A DNA stretch of 64,000 nt, from assembly GCA_964535955.1 (NCBI GenBank), contig CAZHVK010000004.1:6222-70221 (forward strand), in the 5' to 3' direction. This document shows positions 2,495-63,641 of this stretch, in pieces. The position numbers and the translations under genes were made by a program. The stretch's first letter is position 1. Every line of letters begins with the position of its first letter. Origin of the DNA: an uncultured Methanosarcinales archaeon. Lineage in GTDB: Archaea; Nanobdellota; Nanobdellia; Woesearchaeales; CAXGTL01. The notes below the pieces were generated by a model, which saw nothing but the letters and a program-made list of their open reading frames with translations, was not told the DNA's origin and did not search any database.

Positions 2495-3184
2495 ATGAAC
2501 CATATAAAAAACATTTTCAATAAAAAAATAGATGATTGGACACATAACAAATTCATAAGGTATAGTCTTGGTGAATTTACAAAAGAATTATTTGTTATAA
2601 AAATTACAGGCAAAAACATAACAGTGCAATCAGGTGCTGAGTATCTTGATTCTATGTGGGATTTGTTTTCTAAGTTAATCAAGTCAGATGTTGAGCTAAA
2701 AGGTGTGATTGTTTCTAAAGCAGATATTGTAAAGGATTTAGAAGATTTTGGAATAGAAATAAAGAAAAAAGTTGGTAAAAAATATACAATTGAGACAAAA
2801 CTAGATGCAAAGAAATTCAAAGAGTTCATTGAAAAGTTTAATCAATATGCTTTATTATTAAAACTAAAGTCAGATGTTTATATATTGAATGTTAAGAAAT
2901 CTTTGCCAAAACCAGGCAAAGTTTTAGAAAAGTTCTTAACTGCAAAATTTGCTAAGGATGATCTAAAGTTTTTAACAGATGAATTTTTATTTGATACTAA
3001 AGTTGATAAATTTAAGAAAGTTGAAATTAAGCATACTTATGTGATTGAAAACATAGATGTACCAAAACAATATGAAAATGATCCTGCAATGGCTCGTTTA
3101 AAAGCAATCAGAATAGGAAAAATTATTAGAGAAATTAATCTCGATGGAAAAATTACAAAATCTGAAATACAAATGAAAGTTTAG
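2495..3184 (+). CDS. Hypothetical protein (229 aa)
   Basis: Intact ORF preceded by RBS GAGGTGA (aagaggtgaaattaatATG); no motif recognised. Confidence 0.55.
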   Translation: MNHIKNIFNKKIDDWTHNKFIRYSLGEFTKELFVIKITGKNITVQSGAEYLDSMWDLFSKLIKSDVELKGVIVSKADIVKDLEDFGIEIKKKVGKKYTIETKLDAKKFKEFIEKFNQYALLLKLKSDVYILNVKKSLPKPGKVLEKFLTAKFAKDDLKFLTDEFLFDTKVDKFKKVEIKHTYVIENIDVPKQYENDPAMARLKAIRIGKIIREINLDGKITKSEIQMKV

Positions 3185-3232
3185 AGCAATAACTCTCTTT
3201 TTAACTCGTAATATTTACAGAATATGTTATAT

Positions 3233-3382
3233 TTATCCAGCTTCTTCCCAGCCCTGCATAAATGCAGCTTCTACAGGGGTAATCTCATCATTATCCAACA
3301 TTTCTTGGACATTATCAAGGAAATCTTCTGTTTTATCTTTACTAATATCTAATTCTATTTCTTTTACAATATCAAATACCAT
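3233..3382 (-). CDS. Small acidic protein (49 aa), hypothetical; not in the ORF track
   Basis: Minus-strand ORF MVFDIVKEIELDISKDKTEDFLDNVQEMLDNDEITPVEAAFMQGWEEAG with a very strong RBS GGGGGTGGA 4 nt upstream of the ATG. Confidence 0.4.
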   Translation of the reverse strand: MVFDIVKEIELDISKDKTEDFLDNVQEMLDNDEITPVEAAFMQGWEEAG

Positions 3383-3627: not shown

Positions 3628-3656
3628 TAACGCAGTAAAATCTGGGGGGATTGAAT

Positions 3657-4604
3657 ATGGTAGAATTTAGAAAATTAATTGCATTTGGAAAATCATCTTA
3701 TGTAATCAGTTTACCTAAAAAATGGATAGAGAGGAATAAGTTGGACAAGGGTGATACAATCTTTATCGAGGAGAAATCACACTCACTTACATTAAGAACA
3801 AAACAAGAAGAATCAGATGAATCAAAAAAAGAGATTACAATAAATGTAGACAATGTTCCTCTTGATTATATTAAAAGAAAGATTGTTAGTTCATACATAA
3901 ATAATTACAAGAGCATTAAGATTACAGGAAAGACACTAAAAGATAAATACAGTAAAATAAGGGATTATCTTCACGATCTAATGGCTTTAGAAATTCTTGA
4001 ACAAAGTGCTGATGTAATTGTTGCAAAGGATTTTATTAATATGAATCAAGTTTCTTTGTTAGGTTTTATCAGGAAGATAGACAATATTACAAGATTTATG
4101 ATGAATGATTCAAAAACATCTATTATAGACAATAAATATGAAAATATTTATGAAAGAGATAAAGATGTTAATAGAATTGGTTTCTTAATATATAGGACAA
4201 TTAAATTTGCTTTGATTAATCCTTCTATGTGCAAAAAACTAAATGTTGAACCAGTTGATTTATTATATTATTGGGTCATAACAAAGCAGATAGAATTTAT
4301 AGCTGATGAATGCAAAAGAATTGCAAGAGTTATGAGAGATATTCACATAAATAAACAGTTAAAAGATGAAATAATCAAGATTTATGAACAAATCCAGAAA
4401 TTTTATGCAGATATAATGAAGGCATATTATACAAAGAATGAAGAAGAAGCTTATAAGATTGCTGCTAAAAAGAATGGAATTTTAAAAATAGTTGATGATT
4501 TTAATAAAAAATATCAAAATAAGAAGAATATTCCTGTTTTATGCGATAAATTCAAGAATTTGATTGCTAATATACATATAGCAGGAAGAATGATTTACAC
4601 ATAA
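3657..4604 (+). CDS. Putative transcription regulator: N-terminal AbrB/SpoVT swapped-hairpin domain fused to a PhoU-like domain
   Basis: N-terminus GKSSYVISLPKKWIERNKLDKGDTIFIEE resembles the AbrB/SpoVT DNA-binding motif; the remainder is helical, PhoU-like. ATG at 3657 with a GGGGGG RBS (the track's TTG at 3651 is unlikely). Confidence 0.6.
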   Translation: MVEFRKLIAFGKSSYVISLPKKWIERNKLDKGDTIFIEEKSHSLTLRTKQEESDESKKEITINVDNVPLDYIKRKIVSSYINNYKSIKITGKTLKDKYSKIRDYLHDLMALEILEQSADVIVAKDFINMNQVSLLGFIRKIDNITRFMMNDSKTSIIDNKYENIYERDKDVNRIGFLIYRTIKFALINPSMCKKLNVEPVDLLYYWVITKQIEFIADECKRIARVMRDIHINKQLKDEIIKIYEQIQKFYADIMKAYYTKNEEEAYKIAAKKNGILKIVDDFNKKYQNKKNIPVLCDKFKNLIANIHIAGRMIYT

Positions 4605-23221: not shown

Positions 23222-24412
23222 TTATTCAGTATAATGGTCTGTTTTTACTTTTTTACCATCTATATATATATTATTGATTACTTTGAGTCTATTTTGTTTA
23301 TTGCCTTTTTTACCTGGTTTTCCATTACCTTTGACTGGTTTGTCATCATCATCTCTTTCATAATCAGCAATATCTTCAATTGTTTTCCTTACTCCTTGTC
23401 TTGAATCACCAATCTTATCTATTTGGTCATTGTGAAAATCTAATGCACCATCTACTGATCTAAAGTATTTCTTAACTTTTCTTTCAACTTTTTTACCTTC
23501 TCTTGCTACATAAGCATGATCTTTGCTAGTTTCTTTATAACAACTGGTTGCATAACATGAAAGTCCTACTAATAATGCTAATGCTAGTAATCCTGTTCCT
23601 ATTTTTGCTGTTTTATACAAACAAGGATATTGATTTTTGATGTATGCAAAGAGTCCTTTGTTATCTTTATCTTTTTTATCATCATCATTAGGTCTATATG
23701 GTCCAATTGGTCCTGGTAGTCCTTGTTCTCCTTGAATTCCTTGTGGCCCTTGTATTCCTTTTTCTCCAGGCTCTCCGTCCTTACCATCTACTCCAGACTT
23801 ACCATCTACTCCTGGCTTTCCATCTACCCCATGCTTTCCATCTACTCCTTGTTTTCCATCTACCCCTGGCTTTCCATCTTCTCCATCTTTTCCATCTACT
23901 CCATGCTTTCCATCTATTCCAGGTTCCCCTTTTTCTCCAGGTACCCCAGGATTTCCATCTACTCCTGGCTTTCCATCTATTCCAGGCTCTCCATCTTTTC
24001 CATCTGCCCCAGACTTTCCATCTATTCCAGGCTCTCCGTCCTTTCCATCTACTCCAGGTTTTCCATCTTTTCCTTTTTTACCTCTTGGTCCTGTTTTTCC
24101 AGGCTCCCCTTGTTCTCCTTGTGCTCCTGGATCTCCTTTAATACCAATTCTATTAATACCATCTTTATACAAACAAACAACAATTGATCCTAATGAATCA
24201 CGAAGTAATTTTCTATCTTGTAATTTTTTTTCTTTAATAACTTCATTAGCAAAATATTCAGGAACATGTGCTCTTTGAAAGATATCTACTTCATCTTGAG
24301 TAAATAAACCACTATACTTTGGTTGTTTTGTTTGTTTTTTAGAATCATCAATCCATTTATCTACTTTATCATCTAATGCTATTTTAAAATATTCTATTGT
24401 ATCTTCAGTCAT
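23222..24412 (-). CDS. Collagen-like triple-helix repeat membrane protein
   Basis: 50 uninterrupted Gly-X-Y triplets (GIKGDPGAQGEQGEPGKTGPRGKKGKDGKPGVDG...GLPGPIGPY), then a TM helix (LLALALLVGL) and a C-terminal SCYATSCYKETSKDH...DSRQGVRKTIEDIADYER module. Confidence 0.65.
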   Translation of the reverse strand: MTEDTIEYFKIALDDKVDKWIDDSKKQTKQPKYSGLFTQDEVDIFQRAHVPEYFANEVIKEKKLQDRKLLRDSLGSIVVCLYKDGINRIGIKGDPGAQGEQGEPGKTGPRGKKGKDGKPGVDGKDGEPGIDGKSGADGKDGEPGIDGKPGVDGNPGVPGEKGEPGIDGKHGVDGKDGEDGKPGVDGKQGVDGKHGVDGKPGVDGKSGVDGKDGEPGEKGIQGPQGIQGEQGLPGPIGPYRPNDDDKKDKDNKGLFAYIKNQYPCLYKTAKIGTGLLALALLVGLSCYATSCYKETSKDHAYVAREGKKVERKVKKYFRSVDGALDFHNDQIDKIGDSRQGVRKTIEDIADYERDDDDKPVKGNGKPGKKGNKQNRLKVINNIYIDGKKVKTDHYTE

Positions 24413-26609: not shown

Positions 26610-27671
26610 ATGGCAAAAATTATAGCAATTGACGAAAAAATAATAAATAATCAATTTAATAGACAAATTGCTGAATGTATTGGATTATGGTTAGCAGAAG
26701 GAGATAATAAATGTACGAATGAAATTACATTCACTAATAATTGTTTTGATCTTATTAAACATTTTCATAATACAATAACTAAATTATTTAAAGAATATAA
26801 TTTCAATATAAGAATTTATGTTTATTCAAAAAATAAACTTAAAATAGACCTTCCTATAAAAGATTGCATAACTAAATATTATTCTGATAAACGGGCTAAA
26901 AAACCTTATTTTATTTGGAGAATTTGTTCTGTTAAACTGAACAGGAAATGGAAAAATATTGTTGAAGCATATAAGCCAAATTCAGAATTTTATCCTGAAA
27001 TCTTAAGAGGGTTTTTTGCTGGTGAGGGGAATATCAAGATAGGAAGCCACAATAGTAGAGTAATTAGGATAGCACAAAAAAACAGAGTAAAGTTCATAGA
27101 AAATATATTAGATTCCTTAAAAATAGAATACAAGTTTAAAAAAAATGAGAGAAGTTATTGCATATATCATAAGGATAATTGGGATATTTTTTCTAGATTT
27201 GGATTAGCAGATTTACATCCTATAAAAAAGAACAAATTCTATACTAATTATAATTTCAAAGAAGAACATTATAAACATAATTATCTTAAAAAAGAAGTAT
27301 TTAAAGAATTGGTTAGACCTCATACTACAATTGAATTATCTAAAAAATTTAATCGTTCACCAGCAAGAATCTGTGATATTGTAATAGAGCTTAAAAAAGA
27401 AGGTCTTATCACAAATTTTGGAGTCAAAAGTACTATGTATTGGATAAGAAATGATAAAAATTCTATAATTATATCACAAATTAAAGAGAAATATATAAAT
27501 ATAGTAAAAGAAAAACCATTATTAACATCTGAAATTGCTAAAACATTAAAAGTTGATTGGAAAAATGCATTCAAAAGATTGAAAGAACTTGAGAAATTAA
27601 AATTAGTACAACAAATTAACAAAAATGAATGGGGATATATTAAAACAAGTAAAAGGGTTATCGTAATATGA
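26610..27671 (+). CDS. Free-standing double-motif LAGLIDADG homing-endonuclease-like protein with two C-terminal winged-helix domains
   Basis: Two LAGLIDADG motifs: ECIGLWLAEGD and LRGFFAGEGNIK. C-terminal wHTH-like segments (TIELSKKFNRSPARICDIVIELKKEGLI; TSEIAKTLKVDWKNAFKRLKELEKLKLV). Stop overlaps the rnhB start (ATATGA). Confidence 0.65.
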   Translation: MAKIIAIDEKIINNQFNRQIAECIGLWLAEGDNKCTNEITFTNNCFDLIKHFHNTITKLFKEYNFNIRIYVYSKNKLKIDLPIKDCITKYYSDKRAKKPYFIWRICSVKLNRKWKNIVEAYKPNSEFYPEILRGFFAGEGNIKIGSHNSRVIRIAQKNRVKFIENILDSLKIEYKFKKNERSYCIYHKDNWDIFSRFGLADLHPIKKNKFYTNYNFKEEHYKHNYLKKEVFKELVRPHTTIELSKKFNRSPARICDIVIELKKEGLITNFGVKSTMYWIRNDKNSIIISQIKEKYINIVKEKPLLTSEIAKTLKVDWKNAFKRLKELEKLKLVQQINKNEWGYIKTSKRVIVI

Positions 27672-45595: not shown

Positions 45596-48076
45596 TTATT
45601 TTCCTCTACTATTCAGATCATCAATAAGGTCTACTTCATCTGGAAATTGATCTATATGTGTGTGTTTAGTAGAATCACCACCTAATAATGCGTCAAGTGG
45701 ATCTTGATCATCAATACCAAACAATTGATTCAATTTAGCTTCTTCATCTTGTGTATCTTGTTTTTTGTCTTGTTGTTCTTTTTTATCCAAACCAAAATAA
45801 TGATCTATCTTTTCTTGTGATGGTATATAATCAATTTCTTCTCCAGGCTCTCCTCCAGAAGCTTGAGCCAATTCTTCATTTATTTGATCAATTTCATCCG
45901 GTGTGTATTCTTCTTGTTTTGTTTCTGGCAAATACATTTCAGCTTCTTGTTCTAAGAGTTTTGTCATGCTTTGTTCTTTTTTATCTTCTATTTTCTTATC
46001 TCTTTGTCTTTGTTCAATTAGTTCTTGTGATAATGATTTATCTTTTATTATTGTTGCTGATTGTCTTTTCTTTATTATTAGACCACCCCTTCTCTTGTTT
46101 TCTCTTTCCTCTTCTTCATGCACTGCTTTACTTGACTCAGCAAACTGTTGAAGCAAACTTTGAAAATCATCATCACCATCATCCTCTTCTTCTCTTGCTA
46201 AAAGATTCCCAAAAGGAGAAGAACCTGGACTAAGACAAATAGAATGCAGATCATCTCCATAATCTTCATCATCACAAAAAACACTACTCAAAAAAATACC
46301 ACAAGGATCCATTTTTCCTGGTTCTGTTAATTGATCATCATCTAAACCAGACCCTCCAGACAACATATTTAAAAATTCATCTTCTTCATCAAGAGTAGGA
46401 AATTGTATTCCCTGCGGTTCATCATCACCACCATCATTCCCTTTAACCAATTTTTTATACTGATGCAGATCTTTTCTTAATGCATCCATTTTGTTCATTA
46501 TCTTCCTACTTAAGTGATTTTTTGCATTAATTTTCTTTAATTCACTTAATTCTTTACTCATCTTGTCTACATAATCAAACAAATTACTTTCTTTTGAAGT
46601 TACTCTAAAGCCAAAATTTTCATCAATAACAACTAATTCTCCTCTGTACAAAAGATTGTTTCCACACTTCACTAGAATACTTTGTCCAGCAAGTTGTTCT
46701 AATTTGAATTCAGAACCAATCTCTAGTTGTGAAGCTTGTTTTGAAGTCATATAAGTATGTCCAATTATTGCTCTTAATTCTGTACAAACTGAATTAATCC
46801 TGTCAACTGGTCTTAATTTATGGTCTCTGTCTCTAAAATTGACTATTTTTACTTTAAAATATTCATCTTCAACACCAAGCCTGCATTTACCAAGATACAG
46901 ACCACCTGCATAAATATCAAACTCTTCACCACACAATGTATCTAGTTCAATTACTGCTCCTGTACTAATCTCTTGAAGATCTTGCACAGGTCTTTCACTT
47001 CTTCCTGCTTCTATTTCTATTTTTAATGCTTGGCTACCAAATATTTCTTTATTTATCTTTGTCTTGGTCTCTCTACCATAAAACTTCTTTAAAAAAGGAT
47101 GTATTGGAAAACTCACATTTACAATTCCTTCTCTACAATCTGCTTTTTTAAAATATTCATTTGTTTTTTGTTTAAAGTATTCAATTTTGTCACTAAAAGT
47201 TAATTGTTTTCCTTCTTCATCGCTTTGCCTAATTCTATGTATACCATCACCTAATTTTTCTAAGAATATTCTTTCAATATGGGCAATAGTATCATAATCT
47301 TCCTTGATTTTATCCCAATTTTCTCTAAACACTTTTACAAACTGACAATTCAGCTCATATTCATCATCATCAAAACCAATTCCAACAAGAACCTTATCAA
47401 TATCATCATAATCATCAATCCCTTCTGCAGTTAATTTATCAAAATAATCAATACCAGAAGAATAATTAGTATGACACTGAAACTCATATGTCAATAATAA
47501 GACCATATCATTAGGATTATGTATCACCATCTTAGGATCTGTAAATAATTCAGACATTGTTACTTTTTCTTCTAATTTTATATTCTTAACCAATGTTTCT
47601 AAAAATGTTTTACATGTTTCTGATAATTTAGAATGCATATTTTCTAATCTTTTTGCACTTGTTTTTTCATCAAATGCATATAATGGTGAAAATGTATTTA
47701 CTAATCCTGCATTGAATTCTAAATAACCAGCATATTCTCCAATCTTAAATTCTTGTAGATAAGTAGGATTATTGATACTTCTTATAAATTCTTCATGTGT
47801 GATCTGATCAACACTTACTATGTCTAATCTAGAGACATAGACATTACTATGCTTATTTCTAAATTCTTTTAACATCTCTTTTTCAAAATATTCTCTACTC
47901 TTATTTGATAAATAATCAGATTGTCTTTTTGTAAAAAAATCAGGTCTTTTATAATCATAGATCTTTATTTTTCTATGTTTTACATCTTCTTTCATTTCTT
48001 CATCAGTCTTAAGATCACCTGTCTCAATTGCACTTAACAAAGCATCTATCTCATCTTGACATAGAATTTCAACCAT
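45596..48076 (-). CDS. FliM/FliY-like switch protein: CheY-binding N-terminal peptide plus two FliN/SpoA domains and a long acidic tail
   Basis: N-terminus MVEILCQDEIDALLSAIETGD matches the bacterial FliM/FliY LSQ(D/E)EIDALL peptide. SpoA domains: AVIELDTLCGEEFDIYAGGLYLGKCRLG and LEQLAGQSILVKCGNNLLYRGELVVIDENFGFRVT (compare T. maritima FliN ARGEVVVVDENFGVRIT). Confidence 0.7.
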   Translation of the reverse strand: MVEILCQDEIDALLSAIETGDLKTDEEMKEDVKHRKIKIYDYKRPDFFTKRQSDYLSNKSREYFEKEMLKEFRNKHSNVYVSRLDIVSVDQITHEEFIRSINNPTYLQEFKIGEYAGYLEFNAGLVNTFSPLYAFDEKTSAKRLENMHSKLSETCKTFLETLVKNIKLEEKVTMSELFTDPKMVIHNPNDMVLLLTYEFQCHTNYSSGIDYFDKLTAEGIDDYDDIDKVLVGIGFDDDEYELNCQFVKVFRENWDKIKEDYDTIAHIERIFLEKLGDGIHRIRQSDEEGKQLTFSDKIEYFKQKTNEYFKKADCREGIVNVSFPIHPFLKKFYGRETKTKINKEIFGSQALKIEIEAGRSERPVQDLQEISTGAVIELDTLCGEEFDIYAGGLYLGKCRLGVEDEYFKVKIVNFRDRDHKLRPVDRINSVCTELRAIIGHTYMTSKQASQLEIGSEFKLEQLAGQSILVKCGNNLLYRGELVVIDENFGFRVTSKESNLFDYVDKMSKELSELKKINAKNHLSRKIMNKMDALRKDLHQYKKLVKGNDGGDDEPQGIQFPTLDEEDEFLNMLSGGSGLDDDQLTEPGKMDPCGIFLSSVFCDDEDYGDDLHSICLSPGSSPFGNLLAREEEDDGDDDFQSLLQQFAESSKAVHEEEERENKRRGGLIIKKRQSATIIKDKSLSQELIEQRQRDKKIEDKKEQSMTKLLEQEAEMYLPETKQEEYTPDEIDQINEELAQASGGEPGEEIDYIPSQEKIDHYFGLDKKEQQDKKQDTQDEEAKLNQLFGIDDQDPLDALLGGDSTKHTHIDQFPDEVDLIDDLNSRGK

Positions 48077-48256
48077 TATTATCCCCTCACCTAAATATTT
48101 AGTATTTGTTTATTATGTTAATATTTTAATATATTAAATTCTTATTGTAATATATAATATTACTATGTTGACATATATAATTATTATATCTCTATATAGA
48201 TGTATATTCTAACCACTTTTAAAAGAATTATTATACTCTAGAATATATATAAAACA

Positions 48257-50527: not shown

Positions 50528-53782
<3,255 letters not shown>

Positions 53783-54481: not shown

Positions 54482-56707
54482 TTGAACACAGAATCTATTG
54501 AAATACAAAATAAGAGCAAAGCATTACGAGAATCTCATGGCTTAGAATGGCTTGCTTTTAATCTATCAAAAGAACAACCTGATATAGAACAAAGACTTTC
54601 TCATTTAGACAATGATCCTGAAATAGACATAATAGAAGCATTGGTTGACAGTGGTTATGAACCAATTCTTGAGCCATTTCCAGGAAGCGGAAAGATGAAG
54701 GATTGTTATTTTGTATATCAGGATAAGAATAAAAAGCACAAAAGAGTTGCTGTTATTGATAAACCATTAAAAGATCTTTCTGAAAAATCAAGAAAAAACA
54801 AACAAAAAGGAAATGATGTTGAAAACGAAGGAAATATCTTAAGAAATATTTCAGATCGTAAAGAACATTATATAATTGATTATTATCACAAGATAAAACT
54901 TTCAGATGGCCGTTATATGCATATTATTGAATATTTTCCAGGAGAGCCACTGTTTGATTATGTGAAGAAAAATGGTCCTTTTTCAGCAAAAGGATTTGAA
55001 CAAGTTGCAGACAAACTATTAGTAGCTATAAGTCATGTTTATAATGATGGATATCTGCATAGAGACACTCACACAGGAAATATATTAGTTAGAGAAGATA
55101 AAGATGGATTTGATGCAAGATTAATAGATTTTGGAAATGCATCTGACAAAGAATCTTTAGAACAAAGGCTTTGTAATTCAACAGCAATGTCTTCAATAAT
55201 AGCAATGCCTATTGTTGATCCTTTTACAATCAGTGGTTTAACATCAGAACCAATCAAATATTCTGTTGCATCTGAGCTTTATGCACTAGGTACTGGATTA
55301 TACTATGCTTTAACAGGCAAAGATATTTTTTATTTTAATAAACAAACAGGAGAAGCAAGAGTAAGAAAAACAGATAAAAACTTATTAGATGAAAATGGAT
55401 TGCTTGATATTGAACTTTATGAACAAGAACTTGCTAATGCTTTAGATGATTTACCCAAAGAAGTAAGAAAATATTCAGAAATCTTGTACAAATTATTAAG
55501 TCTAGAAAGCAGGATGGAGAATCCTGAGGAAAATGCTTTTTACAAATCTGTGGATAAGAACAAAGAAAGTATAAACCCTTTTGAAACTCTTATACAGGAA
55601 TATAATGAGATTAAAGATTATGATCCAGATAAATTACAACAAGTATTAGGCAGTGCAATTGATAATACTCATAAATTACAAGATCTTTTAGATCAAAGAA
55701 AACAGATAATCAATAAAGGCAAAGAAAAGAAGTCATTCTTTAGCAGAATCTTAGGTAACAAGTATGCACTTGCAGCAGGAGCAATTGGTTTGATTGGTTT
55801 GCTTGTGTTTGGAAAGGATTATTTAAAGAAAGACAGCCTAGTTTTTGACCACCCGCCTATTGCAGAGGCTTCACAAACAATAACAGAACCAGCAACAGAA
55901 CAGGAAAACAGACCTATAATAGAAGAAAAACAACCAGCACAAGAACAAGAAGAATCAACATTAGAACAAACATTAAATGATCATTATGGTTTACAAGCAA
56001 TGAAACAAAATATTAAAAAACATGCTTATGTTAATACTGGAAAAGGTGATTGGAAATATGTAGATGTTCATAATGGTCTGGATCGTTATCAAGATACAAG
56101 AAATGGCACAATAGTTTTACTTAGTAAGTTTGGTATTGTAGATGATTTTTTCTTTCCAACTGCTGTAAATGAAATAATAACAGATGCTTATATGCATTTG
56201 GATGATCATTCTTGGAGACATGTAGGTAATATACATTTTGAAGAACACGGAAATCTAAACCGTTACCAACATAAGAAAACTGGTAATGTAGTATGTATAA
56301 ATAAACTTGGAATTATAAGAGAATATTTTATTCCAACAGCTGTTGATGAAATAGAATATGATGCTTATATTGATACTAGCAAATCCAGTCATTGGAGATA
56401 TGTAGACAAAATATATTTTGAAGAACATGGCAATTTAGACCGTTATCAAGACAAGGACAATGGTTCTGTAATTTGTATAAATAAACTTGATATTGTAAAA
56501 GAATATTTTATTCCAACAGGTTTTAATGATATAAAATATGATGCTTATATGTGTCTTGACTCTAATGATTGGAAGAATTTGGGTAAGATACAAAGTGAAA
56601 AGCATGGCACTCTAAACCGTTATCAGAATAAAGAAACAGGTACAATAGTCTGTATAAATAGACTTAGCATTTTAAAGGATTTCTTTATACCAACAAGTGT
56701 GAATTAA
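54482..56707 (+). CDS. Hanks-type Ser/Thr protein kinase, TM segment, and four tandem ~58-aa C-terminal repeats
   Basis: Kinase motifs RVAVIDKP (VAIK-like), HRDTHTGNILV (catalytic loop), LIDFGNA (DFG). TM helix ALAAGAIGLIGLLVFG. Repeats contain H-x-G-x-L-x-R-Y-Q and (E/D)(Y/F)F(I/F)PT motifs. TTG start at 54482 with RBS AGGGGTG. Confidence 0.7.
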   Translation: MNTESIEIQNKSKALRESHGLEWLAFNLSKEQPDIEQRLSHLDNDPEIDIIEALVDSGYEPILEPFPGSGKMKDCYFVYQDKNKKHKRVAVIDKPLKDLSEKSRKNKQKGNDVENEGNILRNISDRKEHYIIDYYHKIKLSDGRYMHIIEYFPGEPLFDYVKKNGPFSAKGFEQVADKLLVAISHVYNDGYLHRDTHTGNILVREDKDGFDARLIDFGNASDKESLEQRLCNSTAMSSIIAMPIVDPFTISGLTSEPIKYSVASELYALGTGLYYALTGKDIFYFNKQTGEARVRKTDKNLLDENGLLDIELYEQELANALDDLPKEVRKYSEILYKLLSLESRMENPEENAFYKSVDKNKESINPFETLIQEYNEIKDYDPDKLQQVLGSAIDNTHKLQDLLDQRKQIINKGKEKKSFFSRILGNKYALAAGAIGLIGLLVFGKDYLKKDSLVFDHPPIAEASQTITEPATEQENRPIIEEKQPAQEQEESTLEQTLNDHYGLQAMKQNIKKHAYVNTGKGDWKYVDVHNGLDRYQDTRNGTIVLLSKFGIVDDFFFPTAVNEIITDAYMHLDDHSWRHVGNIHFEEHGNLNRYQHKKTGNVVCINKLGIIREYFIPTAVDEIEYDAYIDTSKSSHWRYVDKIYFEEHGNLDRYQDKDNGSVICINKLDIVKEYFIPTGFNDIKYDAYMCLDSNDWKNLGKIQSEKHGTLNRYQNKETGTIVCINRLSILKDFFIPTSVN

Positions 56708-57621
56708 CTCTTTATAATACCAATCAAACTACCACTGCAGTGATAAAACATTCTTATAACATTTATCAAATAATGAATTACTTGTTTTTCATTATCTTTT
56801 TTAGAATCCAGACATTTCATGCCTAACTTGAATGCAAATTTATTCTCAATACTGTGTATGTCCTGCACAATGTTTGTGTCTTTTGTAACATATAATTTAT
56901 GCAATTTGTCTAATTCTTCTTTTGCAGCACTTAAAAACTTTTTAATATCTTTGTTCATATTTATTTTCCTGTCATGAACATGATTATTAAGAAACCCAAG
57001 ATTTCTTCCTGCAAGTGTGATATGTGACAAAAACAACCAATAAATAGGTGCTAGTTTGGTAGAAAATAAACCTTTTGAAATACACCTTCTCAGGAAATTA
57101 GCATATTTATGAACACTCCTAACAAGTTCTTCTACTTCTCTGAATTCTTGTTTATTTCTTTTTATGATGTTTTTTTCTAAGATTCTCATTATCTCTTTTA
57201 AAATAAAAAACTCTTTATTGATTATGTTATTAAAATTATCAATGCTTGGTTCTGTTATTGATTCTATAACATATTCCTTATCAGAACGGGATCTTACATC
57301 AAAACCAATGATTGCTGTTTCAACAATCTTTTTCACTGTCTTTATTACATTTTTATTTTCAAACCTGATCGTGATCTTGTCATATCCTTGTCTATAAAGG
57401 TTTGCAATAAACCTGCTGATCAAGCTTTTCTCAGCAATTGGTATGTCTATCACTATTTCTTGTTTTTGTTTCTTTTTTTTTGAATCTATTATTAATTTAT
57501 TATGTTCTTCATCAACCTCTACTTCATCTCCTGCTTTTAAACCAATCTTATCAATCCACTTCTTTGGAACATAGATTGTTAAGCCTCCTCCTCCGCCTTG
57601 TCTTATTAATTTTCTTTTCAT
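56704..57621 (-). CDS. AbrB/SpoVT-PhoU-like regulator (paralog of 3657..4604)
   Basis: N-terminus GLTIYVPKKWIDKIGLKAGDEVEVDEE parallels SYVISLPKKWIERNKLDKGDTIFIEE; helical C-terminal domain. Confidence 0.6.
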   Translation of the reverse strand: MKRKLIRQGGGGGLTIYVPKKWIDKIGLKAGDEVEVDEEHNKLIIDSKKKKQKQEIVIDIPIAEKSLISRFIANLYRQGYDKITIRFENKNVIKTVKKIVETAIIGFDVRSRSDKEYVIESITEPSIDNFNNIINKEFFILKEIMRILEKNIIKRNKQEFREVEELVRSVHKYANFLRRCISKGLFSTKLAPIYWLFLSHITLAGRNLGFLNNHVHDRKINMNKDIKKFLSAAKEELDKLHKLYVTKDTNIVQDIHSIENKFAFKLGMKCLDSKKDNEKQVIHYLINVIRMFYHCSGSLIGIIKS

Positions 57622-58042: not shown

Positions 58043-58927
58043 ATGAGCTTAACAAAAATATTAACAACAACATTATTAGTAGGTGGTATGATGTTTAATT
58101 ACATAGTCAGACCAGCACTAGCTAAAAACCAACCAGTACAAATTGCTGTAATTGATTATAATTCAGAACTAGAAAAATTAGATGAATTATATGGCAAAGC
58201 AAGAACACATGGTGAAAGGGATAAAATAAGTGAATTAATAACAAAATACAAGAGCATTAAATTACTAAGCATTGGTCTTGATGAATTAGAAAGATCAATT
58301 GGTGATGTTGAAAAACTAGAAAATGAATTAAGTGATATTGTTAGTGGAAATGATACTGACAACAACAACCAAGGCAATTATACAGACAATACAGTTCCAG
58401 AGCCTAAGGAAGTGTATGATAATTATGTAGATGATATTCTAAACCCAGAAATAGAACAATCAGAAGAACTAGATATATTTCCAGAAGAGACAGAACAAGA
58501 AACACAATATGATACACAACCAGAAGAAGAACAAGAAACACAACAAGAGCTCAAAGAATATCCATTAGGTGTTCTTATTTTAGAAGATGTATATTTAGAT
58601 AAAATAATGAATATACCAGACCAGCCAAAAGCAGTAAACCCTGCTCATAATTTTTGTTTACAAAGAGATGTTGCAGACATGATTATAACAACATATGCAT
58701 GTGAACTTGAGCATGGAAGACATGTAGAAAAACAAGGAGATACAATCAAGGTAAAGATTTCAGGAAATGTTTCTGGTGAATATTGTCTAAAAGCAAGAGA
58801 CAATCTGATTAAAGCGCTAGAATCAAGATACACAACAGAAGAAGTACAGGAACTTGCAAAGACAAACCCAGGTATTAGTATTTTGTTTCCTATAATATCT
58901 CCGTACATACCATTAGAAGGTGAATAA
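58043..58927 (+). CDS. Secreted acidic protein (294 aa)
   Basis: Signal peptide ILTTTLLVGGMMFNYIVRPALA then D/E/Q/T-rich regions; RBS AGGAGG. Confidence 0.5.
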   Translation: MSLTKILTTTLLVGGMMFNYIVRPALAKNQPVQIAVIDYNSELEKLDELYGKARTHGERDKISELITKYKSIKLLSIGLDELERSIGDVEKLENELSDIVSGNDTDNNNQGNYTDNTVPEPKEVYDNYVDDILNPEIEQSEELDIFPEETEQETQYDTQPEEEQETQQELKEYPLGVLILEDVYLDKIMNIPDQPKAVNPAHNFCLQRDVADMIITTYACELEHGRHVEKQGDTIKVKISGNVSGEYCLKARDNLIKALESRYTTEEVQELAKTNPGISILFPIISPYIPLEGE

Positions 58928-59597
58928 AATGGAAAACTTAGAAGAAAGAATGAAAAAACATAACAAACCACTTCACGAAGGTGATAATACTGGTAGGACA
59001 TTATTAGTCTTATGTGCAGGCATAGCAGCAATCGGATCTTGGTGGGTCTATGGGTTTGTATTAGATGATAAAGATGTTCCTTATGAAAGAGAAATAAAAC
59101 AGATTGTTAGAGAATACAAATCAGACAAACAACAAGAATCTCCTTTATTTCCAGAATCACAACCAATTGATTCTGAAGGTGTATATGAAGGAGATATCTC
59201 AGGTGGATCAGGAATTCCTCAGTCTGTTTATGACAAAGAAAAAACTGATTATGAAAACCAAGGAGCTCTTTTCTTGAATGAAACAACAGGTGAACTTATC
59301 AGAGTAAATGAGAAAGGCTTTATTGTTTCATATGACAAACCAGAAGCAGTTAATGAATTAATGATTGGTGGTTATATCAGTGACCACAAGCTATTAAACG
59401 AATGGGAAGAAAAGACACAAGACGAACAACAAGATATTTATTTTTTCCAGAACCTTACAGATGGTACAATAATCTCAGTAAACAAACATTACAGAATACA
59501 ATCAATAGAAGAACCTCTAAATTCAGACACTTTAGAAAAAGGTGTTTACATCAATGATAACACACTATTGAATGAATGGGAACATATTGAAGAATAA
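58920..59597 (+). CDS. Single-pass membrane protein with internal duplicated motif (225 aa)
   Basis: TM helix LLVLCAGIAAIGSWWVYGFVL; duplicated ..D(H/N)(K/T)LLNEWE.. motif. Confidence 0.5.
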   Translation: MNKMENLEERMKKHNKPLHEGDNTGRTLLVLCAGIAAIGSWWVYGFVLDDKDVPYEREIKQIVREYKSDKQQESPLFPESQPIDSEGVYEGDISGGSGIPQSVYDKEKTDYENQGALFLNETTGELIRVNEKGFIVSYDKPEAVNELMIGGYISDHKLLNEWEEKTQDEQQDIYFFQNLTDGTIISVNKHYRIQSIEEPLNSDTLEKGVYINDNTLLNEWEHIEE

Positions 59598-59609
59598 AGG
59601 TGAAACAAA

Positions 59610-60401
59610 ATGAATAAAAATATAAAAAATCTCGGAAAAACAGTATTAGGCTTGACAACTTTAGCAGCTTTATTATATGTTAATCCTATAAATGCAAAAG
59701 AAAACTCAGCTAATAAAAATCCAAGACCTAGGAAATGTATAAGTTATTCTTCTGTCGGTGGAACTAAAGAAAAAGCATTTAAAATTAATAATGCACAGGG
59801 AGAACCAGTTCTTCATAAAGGCTCATTACTTGTACATCTTGTTAAAAATTCAATGCTTTTTGTCGTGATTGATGGTTGTAAATATGAAATCCATGAGACA
59901 AGTGGAAATGATAAACCAGATTCAGCAAAAGTTTTGCAAGACAAGAAACATTATGCAACACAAGGACAATTGGCAACAGAAAATAAATATGGTGATTTTT
60001 ATAGGAGGATAAGAGATGGCGTTATTAAAGAATATGCTGATAATTTGATCAGAATCCTGAATAATGAGGAAGAACCAGAACACCTTACAATTGATAATAC
60101 TAGTTATAATTATTTTAGTGCAGAAGACGAAGAGATCATAAATATTTTTGCCACTGATAAAAATGGAACAAGATATAGTTTTTGTGCAAATCTCTCTGAC
60201 AAAAGTGTTCGAGATTTTAAAGTTGACAATAAAATAGACAGGATAAGTATAGACATACAAAATAACTATTCAAAAGATGTTCAAGGATTACTTGTAGGAA
60301 TAATTGATTCTGCTATTGGTTATAAAGAAAAAGAAAAAGAATCACAATCTCAGAGACATGATCAAATACAGCAAGAGATCCTAGAACAATTCGGATATTA
60401 G
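59610..60401 (+). CDS. Secreted protein (263 aa)
   Basis: Signal peptide LGLTTLAALLYVNPINA; RBS AAGGTGA. Confidence 0.5.
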   Translation: MNKNIKNLGKTVLGLTTLAALLYVNPINAKENSANKNPRPRKCISYSSVGGTKEKAFKINNAQGEPVLHKGSLLVHLVKNSMLFVVIDGCKYEIHETSGNDKPDSAKVLQDKKHYATQGQLATENKYGDFYRRIRDGVIKEYADNLIRILNNEEEPEHLTIDNTSYNYFSAEDEEIINIFATDKNGTRYSFCANLSDKSVRDFKVDNKIDRISIDIQNNYSKDVQGLLVGIIDSAIGYKEKEKESQSQRHDQIQQEILEQFGY

Positions 60402-60412
60402 GTGAATAAAAA

Positions 60413-60670
60413 ATGTCAGACAACACTCCAGAAAAATACATTGCAGTAATGAAGCCGTACATCAGCAAAGTAAAACAATATTTTTCAAAGGTTTTTACTG
60501 ATAATGGAGGTAAGATTCCTTTTAAAGGTTTATCAAGAGACCTTTATGATCAATTTAATATTTTGCCAATCAAAATAATACCTTCAGAAAATAAAAGACA
60601 AATATCAATACGCAGGGAAATGAAAATTCCATTATATCCTGTGATACAAGACTTTGTCTATCCAATATAA
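60413..60670 (+). CDS. Small hypothetical protein (85 aa)
   Basis: ORF with RBS TAGGTGA. Confidence 0.4.
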   Translation: MSDNTPEKYIAVMKPYISKVKQYFSKVFTDNGGKIPFKGLSRDLYDQFNILPIKIIPSENKRQISIRREMKIPLYPVIQDFVYPI

Positions 60671-60683
60671 GAGGAAATAAAAA

Positions 60684-62780
60684 ATGAAATACAGAAAAAC
60701 ATTAGGAACTGCAATTTCATTGCTAGCTGCACCTTTTTTATATTTTGCACAGCCAGCAAAAGCAGATACTTTTGATAAAGTAGTTTCAAAAAGCAATAAA
60801 GAATTCCAACAAAGTTTACAAAAAAGTAACAAAGAGTTTGATGAAAGATTGCAACAAAGTAACAAAGATTTTGAACAAGGATTGCAAAAGAGTGAACAAG
60901 AATTCCAAAAAAAATTAGAACAAAGTGACAAACAATACCAAGAACAATTACAAAAAAGTGAAAAAGAATTTGATGAACATTTAGAAAAAAGTAATAAAGA
61001 ATTTGAACAAGCTTTAAAAAAAAGCAATCTAAGATTTAAACAAGGACTTGAAAATACAAGAAAAAGGTTTGATGAAAAAATATATAATTTTCATAAAGAA
61101 TCGCAAGATGAGATCTCTGACTTAGAAAAAAAAATAAACACAAAACCTTTACCAGAAACATTTTATTATAATAACAATAGATATACACGTGTTCCACTAA
61201 AAAGATTAACAAAACCAGTAAGAAAAAAGACCACAATAAGAACAAGACCAAATAACAGAACAAATTCAACAAAAAACAGAAACACAACAACAAGAACTAA
61301 TAGATACAATCTACAACAGCAATTCAAGAAATTCAAACAATCATTAGACACAATCCTTGACAATGATGTAAAACCTTTATTTTCTACAGAAGAAGCATAT
61401 TCTTATTTCACACAACCAAGAGTCGGTGAAAAGAACAAAGTAGAGTTTGCAAAACAAGTGCACGATAAGTACAGCAAGGTATGGGCAAACAAGATGCACC
61501 AAGGTTTTCCATTGTTCAGTGCAGAGGATATCATACAATTATATAATCTAGGTAATGTTGATGACTTTTTTGCACACACAGACAAATTACTTGAATACAG
61601 ACCAGAACAAAACCAAGGAAATCCTTTTTTTCATGATGGTGAACAAATAATAAGATCTTATTTGAATAAAATGCCAGAAGAATTTATTGATGGTTGGATG
61701 AAAGTGATGGATAGATTGAATTTTGACTGTAAATTCTTAAACACAGCATGGGAATCAGGATTACATGCAGACAGTTACCTTGTAACAAAAGCATTAGCAT
61801 TAGGAGATGATAATGGCAGTCCTCTTTATAACAGGTATAATAAAGATGCACAAAGTTTGTTAGAACTGCATCAATTAGGTGCAAAAGCTGATATATTTGA
61901 TTTTTTTTCCCAGTTTAAGAGTGATAAAGGTTATTTTTTATTCAGACCACAGAGGATAAAAGAGATTGTAAAAAAAGGTTTTGACCTTGATGATGATTAT
62001 ATAAAACAATTACTAGAACTAGAACAAAGAAACAAAGAAAAACTTACAATAGGAGACATAGAAAGCGCAGCAGTAATCAAGAGCATGAATAATCCAAACT
62101 ATGTTTCATCATTATACAAGATCTTTAAAGAACAAGGAATTGATTACAAACTAAGTCTAGCAAAGATCAAAAGATATTGTCAATTAAACTTACCATTAAG
62201 AGACATCTTCTTTTATGACACAAGAAAACCAAATGCAGTGATTGTATTACCAACATCAGATCATAATGAGGCTTTTTATGGAGAATCTGGCAGAGATTTT
62301 ATCAAGTCTTTATTAAGACAATATGATGCACAGATAATAATTGCAGACACAGAACAAGATGTATATACTGGGTTAGACTATGTTCCAGATGTTTTGCTGA
62401 CAACCATCTCAGGCCATGGAACTCAAAAAACATTGTCATTAGGAGAAGCAGACCTAAGAATATATACAGGATCTGGTGACGAGACAAGGACTATTGACAC
62501 TTCTGATGTAGAATTATTATCTTATCTAAAAAAAACACACCCTAGGTCAGTTGTTTTATTAAGATCATGCCTAAATGGCAAAGGAAGACAGTATGAAGAA
62601 AACCTTGCTAATTTTACAGCAAAGTCAGGAAGAAAAGTCATCTCAGGAGATGATATTGCTAACAGAACAGAGATCACTTCATTATTTCCTTTTGACGCAG
62701 AAGTTTATCATCACGACAAAGAAACAGGAAGATACAGAAGAATTACATATAAGCCAGAGATTGGAGGAAAAATACAATGA
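60684..62780 (+). CDS. Secreted repeat protein with C-terminal His/Cys (clan CD, caspase/CHAT-like) putative peptidase domain
   Basis: Signal peptide LLAAPFLYFAQPAKA; about 8 x 11-aa SNKEF(Q/E)QxLQK repeats; basic N/T/R-rich linker; C-terminal TISGHGTQ ... VLLRSCLNGKG consistent with a His-Gly / Cys catalytic dyad arrangement. Confidence 0.55.
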   Translation: MKYRKTLGTAISLLAAPFLYFAQPAKADTFDKVVSKSNKEFQQSLQKSNKEFDERLQQSNKDFEQGLQKSEQEFQKKLEQSDKQYQEQLQKSEKEFDEHLEKSNKEFEQALKKSNLRFKQGLENTRKRFDEKIYNFHKESQDEISDLEKKINTKPLPETFYYNNNRYTRVPLKRLTKPVRKKTTIRTRPNNRTNSTKNRNTTTRTNRYNLQQQFKKFKQSLDTILDNDVKPLFSTEEAYSYFTQPRVGEKNKVEFAKQVHDKYSKVWANKMHQGFPLFSAEDIIQLYNLGNVDDFFAHTDKLLEYRPEQNQGNPFFHDGEQIIRSYLNKMPEEFIDGWMKVMDRLNFDCKFLNTAWESGLHADSYLVTKALALGDDNGSPLYNRYNKDAQSLLELHQLGAKADIFDFFSQFKSDKGYFLFRPQRIKEIVKKGFDLDDDYIKQLLELEQRNKEKLTIGDIESAAVIKSMNNPNYVSSLYKIFKEQGIDYKLSLAKIKRYCQLNLPLRDIFFYDTRKPNAVIVLPTSDHNEAFYGESGRDFIKSLLRQYDAQIIIADTEQDVYTGLDYVPDVLLTTISGHGTQKTLSLGEADLRIYTGSGDETRTIDTSDVELLSYLKKTHPRSVVLLRSCLNGKGRQYEENLANFTAKSGRKVISGDDIANRTEITSLFPFDAEVYHHDKETGRYRRITYKPEIGGKIQ

Positions 62781-63187
62781 ATAAAACAATAGGAAAAAGA
62801 CCAGAATCAATTGATAATAAAGTAGATAATCAAGTTGATGACAAATTAGATGATAACAAGACAAAAGCTTACAATGCTTTGCAAAAGATAAATGATTCTT
62901 ATGACTCAATAAGAAAATCATTAGGAACATCTAATTTAATCATTGGTGCACTTTGTCTAGGTTATGTTGTTTTAGGAGCAATGAACCTTATAGCTCAAAA
63001 ACAAGAATTCCCAATTGTAAACACAGTTCAAGAAGGTTACATACCAACAGACAGGATAGAGATTGAAGTCAAAGACCTAGATGACAGAGATGAACTTCCA
63101 GAGTCTTATATCATTGTCAATGGAAGAAGGTATCATTTGAGTTATAAAGGAAATAAGTATGAAAATATTGATTTGTTGAAGTATTAG
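62777..63187 (+). CDS. Single-pass membrane protein (136 aa)
   Basis: TM LIIGALCLGYVVLGAM; start overlaps the previous stop (ATGA). Confidence 0.45.
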   Translation: MNKTIGKRPESIDNKVDNQVDDKLDDNKTKAYNALQKINDSYDSIRKSLGTSNLIIGALCLGYVVLGAMNLIAQKQEFPIVNTVQEGYIPTDRIEIEVKDLDDRDELPESYIIVNGRRYHLSYKGNKYENIDLLKY

Positions 63188-63197
63188 GTGGGAATAA

Positions 63198-63641
63198 GTG
63201 ACACTTGACAGATTACTCAAAACAAAGCAAAGAATAAGACAAAAACATAATCAAGAACCTTTTGAAAGAGAAACAGATGAAACTTATTCTATAGTTTACC
63301 AAACACAGATGTGCTGGTATGCTGGTATGGGACATCATACAGGCACAAGGCCAAGGATAAGATATGATATAAACAAACAAACAGGATTTGTAACAGTAAC
63401 ACACTATAGACAAACAGATAATTATGTCTTACCATCACCTGAGACAGCAATGCTCATGCCTTTTGAACCTCATAAAAGAAAAGTATATTCTACAAGAGAA
63501 TTTTATGAATATCTAGAAACAGGTGATCATACACTTGGAACAAGAGTATCAATACCTAGAAAAGAAACTGTAAAAGGCCAGATTCTAAATAGAAAAAAAC
63601 TATTAGCAGAATTAATAAAAAAACACAGGTTAAAAGAATGA
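63198..63641 (+). CDS. Hypothetical protein (147 aa)
   Basis: Intact ORF in the same co-oriented cluster; RBS TAGGTGGG. Confidence 0.45.
   Translation: MTLDRLLKTKQRIRQKHNQEPFERETDETYSIVYQTQMCWYAGMGHHTGTRPRIRYDINKQTGFVTVTHYRQTDNYVLPSPETAMLMPFEPHKRKVYSTREFYEYLETGDHTLGTRVSIPRKETVKGQILNRKKLLAELIKKHRLKE

Follow-up and report, generated by a model that had tools for sequence, protein, structure and literature searches.

We examined a 64-kb stretch of archaeal DNA (the window, to which coordinates refer unless another contig is named) that encodes a protein resembling the bacterial flagellar switch proteins FliM and FliN. The gene under study lies on the minus strand and encodes 826 amino acids (aa). 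A review states that FliM is absent from archaea (PMC7289035), and in the full-text literature we found no paper naming FliM together with Woesearchaeota and none describing FliM or FliN in archaea, in line with the premise of an earlier note on this DNA that archaea are not known to encode these proteins. We find that the gene is fixed in a Woesearchaeota chromosome and that at least one further archaeal lineage, a very divergent one, has it too. Judging from the parts of FliM that its sequence has kept and lost, the protein is probably put to a non-flagellar use.

Domain architecture of the 826-aa protein

The size and position that the earlier note gave for the open reading frame (ORF) hold: the ORF listing gives an ATG-initiated frame of 826 codons, preceded by a Shine-Dalgarno-like sequence at the end of a 180-nt AT-rich intergenic spacer. 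The features of the gene are as follows, all on the minus strand.

45596..48076, minus strand: whole ORF, 826 aa, consisting of a FliM N-terminal peptide, a FliM middle domain with an insertion, two SpoA domains and an acidic tail
48083..48092, minus strand: putative Shine-Dalgarno-like sequence AGGTGAGGGG, 6 nt 5' of the ATG, read from the sequence
48029..48067, minus strand: predicted EIDALL docking peptide ILCQDEIDALLSA, residues 4-16, by consensus match to the motif of FliM and FliY that binds phosphorylated CheY (CheY-P) or FlhG
47468..47977, minus strand: first part of the FliM middle (CheC-like) domain, residues 34-203, with motifs RKIKIYDYKRPD and SVDQITHEEFIRS, by BLASTP, hidden Markov models (HMMs) and Foldseek
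47132..47467, minus strand: insertion in the FliM middle domain, residues 204-315, about 112 aa, mostly helical and acidic, seen as a BLASTP gap against the bacterial FliM P0002
47045..47131, minus strand: last strand and helix of the FliM middle domain (EGIVNVSFP...) and linker, residues 316-344, by alignment and model
46829..47044, minus strand: SpoA domain 1, FliN-type, residues 345-416, with the family-specific motif YLGKCRL, by Pfam, NCBIfam and a custom HMM; predicted local distance difference test (pLDDT) 85-90
46586..46801, minus strand: SpoA domain 2, FliN-type, residues 426-497, with LRAIIGHTY and the FliN core GELVVIDENFGFRVT, by Pfam, phmmer, custom HMM and model
46517..46582, minus strand: long helix after SpoA domain 2, residues 499-520 (helix 160-181 of the tandem model, pLDDT about 86)
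45596..46516, minus strand: acidic low-complexity tail, residues 521-826 and stop codon, by composition
46358-46381, minus strand: EIDALL-like tail motif DEFLNMLS, residues 566-573, by pattern search
46148-46171, minus strand: EIDALL-like tail motif DDFQSLLQ, residues 636-643, by pattern search
45677-45700, minus strand: EIDALL-like tail motif PLDALLGG, residues 793-800, by pattern search

The HMM searches, the sequence search of the PDB and the predicted fold firmly identify the protein as a true FliM/FliN homologue, as the earlier note had proposed. The Pfam model FliMN_C (PF01052) matches it in two stretches with an E-value of 1e-25 and 89.9 bits, well above the gathering cut-off of 23.8, which bears out the two SpoA/FliN domains that had been read from the letters. 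The FliM model PF02154 matches residues 40-128 at 25.4 bits, slightly below its 27-bit cut-off, and covers only profile positions 1-88 of 192. Similarly, TIGR01397 (fliM_switch, NCBIfam) aligns residues 3-118 with profile positions 1-111 at an E-value of 4e-20 and 72.3 bits (cut-off 219.6), and TIGR02480 (fliN) scores 74.3 bits, below its cut-off of 84.05. Several NCBIfam FliY models also match, and the fliN, fliM_switch and FliY models all score under their equivalog cut-offs. Thus, the protein carries two copies of the FliN/SpoA domain above the gathering score and is not a full-length FliM by the curated models PF02154 and TIGR01397. The models TIGR02551 (SpaO_YscQ; 29.5 bits against a cut-off of 100.8) and YscQ/HrcQ match weakly. 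PADLOC returned a single sub-threshold match to the whole protein (HEC-01A, E 0.0018, 15.9 bits), and scans for Rfam families, tRNAs, tandem repeats, promoters and terminators returned nothing of relevance.

The docking peptide and the FliM middle domain

The N-terminal peptide LCQDEIDALL, read earlier as a docking site for CheY-P, agrees with the consensus LSQ[DE]EIDALL at 9 of 10 positions, and a motif of this type occurs only once in the six-frame translation of the window. It is modelled as a helix (residues 7-19) and is a predicted docking site. Over residues 1-47 the protein is identical to the bacterial FliM P0002 at 41 of 47 positions, the next best matches reaching 29-30 of 48, while the third-codon positions of the same stretch are saturated (9/26 identical), which indicates that the docking region is under strong purifying selection and was not recently acquired. 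P0002 is a bona fide FliM encoded in an ordinary fliL-fliM-fliY locus of 48% GC.

The earlier note had missed the FliM middle domain, which is present by PF02154, TIGR01397 and Foldseek and is interrupted by an insertion. BLASTP aligns residues 1-201 with P0002 at 44% identity (E 6e-43), and residues 1-203 correspond to FliM residues 1-207. The insertion falls exactly between P0002 residues 207 and 211, after which the alignment resumes at the next FliM strand (EGIVNVSFP, against EGIMNLCIPY of P0002), where the model places a strand at residues 315-324. The inserted segment has no Pfam match and is modelled with low confidence.

Two motifs that give FliM-type domains their known activities are missing. 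The motif GGxG, the contact of FliM with the rotor protein FliG, is absent from residues 1-345, where YAFDEKT stands at the aligned position, and the CheC active-site motif [DS]xxxExxNx22P is likewise absent from residues 1-345, its sole pattern match lying at residue 563 in the acidic tail. An active phosphatase of the CheC/FliY type is therefore ruled out, since the motif is not in the folded domain.

Tandem SpoA domains and predicted structure

Using a custom-built SpoA HMM, we placed the domain boundaries at residues 345-416 and 426-497. Phmmer matches SpoA domain 2 to Thermotoga maritima FliN (PDB 1o6a/1yab) with an E-value of 2.6e-8, and the core YRGELVVIDENFGFRVT is identical to the T. 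maritima core ARGEVVVIDENFGVRIT at 13 of 17 positions. The earlier description of this domain as nearly identical to T. maritima FliN applies to the core motif alone, since identity over the whole domain is about 36-39%; the T. maritima sequence quoted there also had one wrong residue. By distance analysis both SpoA domains are nearer to the FliN type than to the FliM C-terminal type, a feature that had escaped the earlier reading.

An AlphaFold2 model of residues 1-521 (pLDDT 66, with moderate confidence for the middle domain) has as its top Foldseek matches full-length Salmonella FliM in cryo-electron microscopy maps of the C-ring (E 5e-9), followed by crystal structures of the FliM middle domain (E 1e-5, template modelling (TM) score 0.5-0.64) and FliN; the CheC-like fold of the middle domain is thus reproduced in the model. 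The tandem SpoA region alone (residues 340-521) is modelled with a pLDDT of 83 and a predicted TM score of 0.72, and its best PDB match is the engineered FliM(SPOA)::FliN fusion 4yxb/4yxc (TM 0.70-0.78, E 8e-11). The two SpoA domains are therefore predicted to pair within one chain as a pseudo-dimer. SpoA pairs build the lower C-ring and injectisome pods, and bind FliH/SctL (4yxc).

An acidic tail with EIDALL-like motifs

The tail had been described as roughly 250 aa, highly acidic and disordered. It is acidic (net charge -41, 25% D+E) and longer, at about 306 aa; its composition suggests disorder. The tail has neither a Pfam match nor tandem DNA repeats. Its three EIDALL-like motifs are more than shuffled versions of the tail would yield (P about 0.003 with a loose pattern, picked post hoc), and, if genuine, they would give the protein several binding sites for its partner.

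On a contig from a second sample (L166, SAMN10231921) the sequence is 99.87% identical to the window for 3181 nt and then diverges fully after codon ~567, the divergent part (3182-3281) giving a 571-aa product (P0001). This is either an artefact of the scaffold end or a strain that lacks the acidic tail.

A second, very divergent archaeal member of the family

An exhaustive phmmer scan of 1.84 billion representative proteins gave 1247 matches, with only the protein's own cluster below 1e-30. Among the matches listed, a single protein, P0092, has the same architecture. The others are of FliM, FliY or FliN type, those with a source name are bacterial FliM, and no bacterial protein exceeds 44% identity; bacterial origin is, on these matches, the simplest reading.

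P0092, which the earlier note had also missed, has 524 aa and is collinear with the window protein over residues 5-482 at 22% identity. Its peptide, LSQEEIDQLL, is identical to that of the window protein at 8 of 13 positions; it carries an insert of similar length at the same site of the middle domain, followed by two SpoA domains, and it too lacks GGxG. The motifs Y[LI]GKCRL and LRAIIGHTY stand at the same residue numbers in both proteins and occur in no other of the 252 proteins collected. Similarity to P0092 is clear in the first half of the middle domain (z = 10.9) and in the SpoA domains (z about 18), the nearest neighbour of each P0092 SpoA domain being the corresponding domain of the window protein, while the two insertions have no detectable sequence similarity (z = -0.8). 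P0092 has neither the acidic tail nor the helix after SpoA domain 2 (window residues 499-520).

The P0092 contig (45.6 kb, 34% GC) encodes a replicative archaeal DNA ligase (462 bits to the P. furiosus ligase 2cfm), a MazE-domain protein with two homologues in the window and a pyruvoyl arginine decarboxylase; the P0092 locus is likewise free of motility and che genes. We propose an archaeal FliM-FliN-like family defined by a collinear EIDALL peptide, a split middle domain, two SpoA domains with Y[LI]GKCRL and LRAIIGHTY, and an archaeal genome. The window protein and P0092 belong to it, and these are the two lineages known.

Further searches added no member. A scan of GTDB genomes with the window protein found no relative, using exact 8-mer patterns that distant relatives would escape; scans of metagenome and viral contigs with the two-sequence alignment were dominated by ordinary bacterial fliM-fliY/N operons through the generic QDEIDALL; six-frame motif searches and tblastn with the family-specific parts found no further family member, and word-indexed searches with P0092 and with the alignment gave nothing additional.

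The two archaeal loci share only the FliM-like gene and, about 5-9 kb away, the MazE-domain protein, and a conserved operon partner is thereby ruled out. These MazE/AbrB-type proteins form a family of about 305-317 aa defined by the N-terminal domain, one of them with an added PhoU domain, encoded in the window at 3651-4604 (plus strand) and 56704-57621 (minus strand) and near P0092 at L085 16978-17910 (minus strand; 28% identity, E 3e-20). The P0092 contig also encodes a bacterial-type RsmI, the 16S rRNA C1402 2'-O-methyltransferase (L085 2270-2926, minus strand; TIGR00096, 232 bits), a further sign of bacterial gene acquisition in these lineages.

The gene resides in a Woesearchaeota chromosome

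The archaeal nature of the contig, as the earlier note had it, is confirmed. The window carries the archaeal superoperon of proteasome-alpha, SBDS, Rrp4, Rrp41 and Rrp42, and prefoldin-alpha adjoins FtsY among other genes of archaeal type. Proteasome-alpha is 87-89% identical to metagenome-assembled genomes (MAGs) of Woesearchaeota/Nanoarchaeia, and essentially all of its best 80 genome matches are DPANN, which places the host in the Woesearchaeota (DPANN), as a tiny archaeon of symbiotic type.

The identical 826-aa protein stands with the same neighbours on seven contigs from ENA, JGI, Logan and NCBI assemblies, and the second-sample contig L166 matches the window at 99.87% identity for 3.2 kb. 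At 30% GC (0.156 at third codon positions) the gene is indistinguishable from host genes in GC and codon usage; its codon-usage distance to the pooled window genes (0.058) is the lowest in the window gene set, and the frame stays open for 826 codons at this GC content. Since independent assemblies agree on both flanks and composition is host-like, a chimera is ruled out. Recent horizontal transfer is likewise rejected, given the host-like codon usage and the saturated third-codon positions noted above. The intact ORF, the ameliorated codon usage, the intact homologue at 22% identity and the conserved N-terminus are evidence for a maintained function.

No flagellar, che, archaellum, type III secretion system (T3SS), FliH/FliI or secretion genes are found in the window and its visible flanks (about 5 kb past the left end and a short stretch past the right end), in keeping with what the earlier note had seen nearby, and the gene therefore lies outside any flagellar context within 64 kb and the flanks. 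The same note had allowed that a complete bacterial flagellar locus elsewhere would mark the contig as bacterial; the contig is archaeal and these stretches contain no flagellar gene. Of the neighbours that it named, the MFS transporter and the beta-CASP RNase stand, and the small "AbrB-like" protein is a 68-aa ORF with no Pfam match.

Comparison with known systems

Bacterial FliM (T. maritima 2HP7; Salmonella 8umd chain C) shares with the window protein the EIDALL peptide, the motifs RKIKIYDFKRPD and SVDQxTYEEFIRS, the CheC-like fold and a SpoA domain that comes next. In contrast to bacterial FliM, the window protein has lost GGxG, its middle domain is interrupted by an insertion of 112 aa, it has gained a second SpoA domain and an acidic tail of 306 aa, its SpoA domains are of the FliN rather than the FliM_C type, and it is found in an archaeal host with no flagellar context nearby.

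The order of the domains has bacterial precedent, since 37 of about 200 collected matches are bacterial 'FliM' proteins with two FliN-type SpoA domains. Four of these (P0009, P0103, P0171 and P0220, those that are JGI entries being annotated 'FliM') have the same domain order at no more than 30-43% local identity, and have neither the middle-domain insertion, the tail, YLGKCRL nor LRAIIGHTY; P0009, like the window protein, lacks GGxG. The cluster of P0009 and P0228 consists of 392-aa FliM-like proteins with a full PF02154 match, two SpoA domains and a lost GGxG (L171 848-2026, L175 8592-9770, L176 6654-7832). Their contigs, of about 33% GC, carry many small ORFs without an assigned family around the gene, and the neighbours include a D5-like primase-helicase (PHROG DNA primase, 436 bits), a DnaB-like protein, a double-AAA ATPase, Fic and an MmeI-type restriction enzyme. 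From this gene content, the contigs seem to belong to an element of phage or plasmid type with a non-flagellar FliM on board, which could be a vehicle of inter-domain transfer or an element-encoded decoy for CheY or FlhG.

FliN and FliY (T. maritima 1o6a/1yab; H. pylori FliY 5xrw) have in common with the window protein the SpoA fold and the core GE(V/L)VVIDENFG(V/F)R(I/V)T; unlike active FliY, the folded middle domain here lacks the CheC-type phosphatase motif. The FliM(SPOA)::FliN fusion of 4yxb/4yxc was engineered, whereas the fusion here is natural and found in an archaeon. SctQ/SpaO/YscQ proteins resemble the window protein in the tandem SpoA1-SpoA2 toward the C-terminal side of a larger protein and in matching SpoA folds, with weak HMM scores. 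The window protein differs from them in that it has no internal start codon before SpoA2, its N-terminal two-thirds are FliM-like and no T3SS genes accompany it; by model match and neighbourhood it is not an SctQ (TIGR02551). It is not homologous to the archaeal adaptors CheF and ArlCDE and may be analogous in function, as a cytoplasmic adaptor for a CheY-type signal. Archaeal CheC shares the fold of the FliM middle domain, and 3qta is among the Foldseek matches.

Proposed function and alternative explanations

The peptide, the middle-domain fold and the SpoA pair have been kept while the FliG contact has been lost, and we therefore read the protein as a probable non-flagellar scaffold or adaptor; the loss of GGxG fits rewiring to a target outside the flagellum. 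The homology is firm, and both partner and output are inferences. In bacteria, the EIDALL peptide binds CheY-P as a high-affinity site, after which CheY-P engages the FliM middle domain (PMC9126983, PMC6946799). In the archaeon, the N-terminal helix would reversibly capture a small signalling protein, the likeliest candidate being a phosphorylated single-domain CheY-like receiver that, like its bacterial counterpart, would bind first the peptide and next the middle domain. Through its SpoA pseudo-dimer the protein would associate with itself or with a partner in the cytoplasm, the three tail motifs would raise the local capacity for the captured protein, and the signal would thereby be coupled to a non-flagellar target. 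We tentatively favour this domesticated, single-chain FliM-FliN scaffold docking a CheY-like receiver, while giving it somewhat less than an even chance, and we hold the identity of the partner as a CheY-like receiver with the same reserve. Of the suggestion in the earlier note that this is a horizontally acquired CheY-output module rewired to a non-flagellar target, a bacterial origin is the simplest reading and the loss of GGxG fits the rewiring; no receiver-domain gene that could supply the CheY partner was found in the window or its visible flanks.

Several observations weigh against the scaffold as proposed. No gene for a receiver-domain protein, CheA, MCP, MinD/ParA, archaellum or ATPase partner was found in the window, its visible flanks or within 10 kb on either side of P0092. 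Archaeal CheY normally signals via CheF, with a different binding mode and surface (PMC7289035, PMC9126983), and DPANN genomes are reported, in a comparative survey, to have no chemotaxis system (PMC9680633). P0092 shares neither the tail nor its extra motifs, whose statistics are post hoc. Aligned with hhalign on its own, P0092 matches the bacterial FliM profile only in the SpoA region, so that the window protein is the link that reveals the FliM ancestry of the family. The family occurs in only two lineages among about 15 billion proteins and is thus not a core function. Finally, only four population single-nucleotide polymorphisms (SNPs) separate the samples, too few for a direct measurement of selection (dN/dS). 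A partner elsewhere in the genome is possible, since archaellum genes are present in some Woesearchaeota MAGs (PMC8407392) and CheY-like genes have been reported in ultra-small prokaryotes (PMC9938205).

The same scaffold could instead use its EIDALL peptide to dock an ATPase of the MinD/ParA type, as FliM/FliY dock FlhG in bacteria, and serve to position or count a cell structure rather than to relay a phospho-signal. Many archaea encode MinD/ParA ATPases. Binding of the MinD-like ATPase FlhG in bacteria requires the EIDAL motif and needs nothing beyond it (bioRxiv 10.1101/2022.04.21.489128), the peptide is conserved in both archaeal proteins, and the reported lack of chemotaxis systems in DPANN speaks for a partner of this kind as well. 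However, neither archaeal locus, as covered above, encodes a MinD/ParA protein, and the protein retains a FliM middle domain that FlhG binding does not need and that is the second CheY-P site in bacteria (PMC9126983). We consider this alternative unlikely, and a MinD/FlhG-like partner equally so. A sorting-platform-like adaptor resembling SctQ/FliN, in which the tandem SpoA would link a FliH/SctL-like stalk, together with its ATPase, to a machine in the membrane, seems quite improbable. In its favour, SctQ/SpaO proteins also have SpoA1 and SpoA2 in one chain, the structural model resembles a FliM::FliN fusion that binds FliH(APAR) in 4yxc, and the SpaO_YscQ and YscQ/HrcQ models match weakly. 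Against it, both archaeal loci lack T3SS, FliH/FliI and other secretion genes, the SctQ model scores far under those of FliN and FliM, and the conserved EIDALL peptide is left unexplained. Type III systems are not known from archaea. The secretion-type platform that the earlier note had offered as its other option finds nothing in its favour beyond the tandem SpoA fold.

That the gene is a functionless leftover of a transfer from bacterium to archaeon, drifting to loss, would agree with the extreme rarity of the family, the lost GGxG, the unlike contexts of the two archaeal loci, the fast evolution of insertion and tail, and the fact that three of the four SNPs between samples are non-synonymous. 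We regard it as improbable, because an 826-codon ORF with a good Shine-Dalgarno sequence has stayed intact at a genomic GC content of 30%, its codon usage has ameliorated fully, the collinear P0092 keeps the peptide, both SpoA domains and the unique motifs, and the N-terminal region is conserved despite saturated synonymous sites. An assembly or binning artefact that joined a bacterial fliM-fliN fragment to archaeal DNA has only the unexpected taxonomy to recommend it, and its likelihood is negligible in view of the left and right flanks, which agree between the ENA, JGI and Logan assemblies from several samples, the host-like composition and the absence of any closely matching bacterial protein among the matches listed.

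Other features of the window

Other genes in and next to the window were recorded alongside the FliM-like gene. They include the following.

54482-56707, plus strand: 741-aa eukaryotic-type Ser/Thr protein kinase (PF00069), on the strand opposite to the FliM-like gene and about 6.4 kb away from it
50528-53779, minus strand: GyrB (1083 aa), split by an intein (PF14890, residues ~459-880) with an HNH-like trace
23222-24412, minus strand: 396-aa archaeal protein with collagen triple-helix repeats (PF01391, E 2e-25)
26610-27671, plus strand: 353-aa protein with a LAGLIDADG_3 trace and a winged helix of the TrmB / TFIIIC B-block type
58043-63641, plus strand: packed same-strand cluster of at least eight genes (294, 225, 263, 85, 698, 136, 147 and 227 aa), running past the window end

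The genes of the last cluster have no Pfam match; several have signal- or anchor-like segments at the N-terminus and the cluster may therefore be an operon for cell-surface proteins. About 2 kb past the left end of the window (L169 3062-3862) lies a gene for a 266-aa KaiC/RadA-like ATPase (PF06745, a domain family that includes the archaellum protein ArlH), adjoining a beta-propeller protein, with no arlI or arlJ beside it.

Implications

What is new here is an archaeal, probably non-flagellar, single-chain derivative of FliM and FliN; the FliM and FliN families themselves, and bacterial FliM with two SpoA domains, were already known. Members of the family are very rare, and it could be no more than a curiosity of particular lineages. 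The protein indicates that a C-ring module is able to persist, and to evolve, where it serves neither flagellum nor injectisome, which should surprise specialists in motility and chemotaxis, and it is experimentally tractable. The protein offers structural work a natural single-chain version of the SpoA 'common assembly module', and its 16-residue peptide is a handle with which to fish for a signalling partner in DPANN archaea, a group with a barely explored cell biology and, as reported, no chemotaxis. It is conceivable, if rather doubtful, that DPANN archaea have exapted a C-ring building block as a stand-alone, signal-responsive scaffold, in which EIDALL would read a CheY- or MinD-like switch and the SpoA domains would assemble on, or tether, a machine of the archaeal cell, for instance the motor of an archaellum or pilus, the stalk of an A-type ATPase or a host-contact apparatus. 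If true, flagellar switch proteins would here be put to functional use for the first time outside the type III machines of bacteria, and for the first time in archaea.

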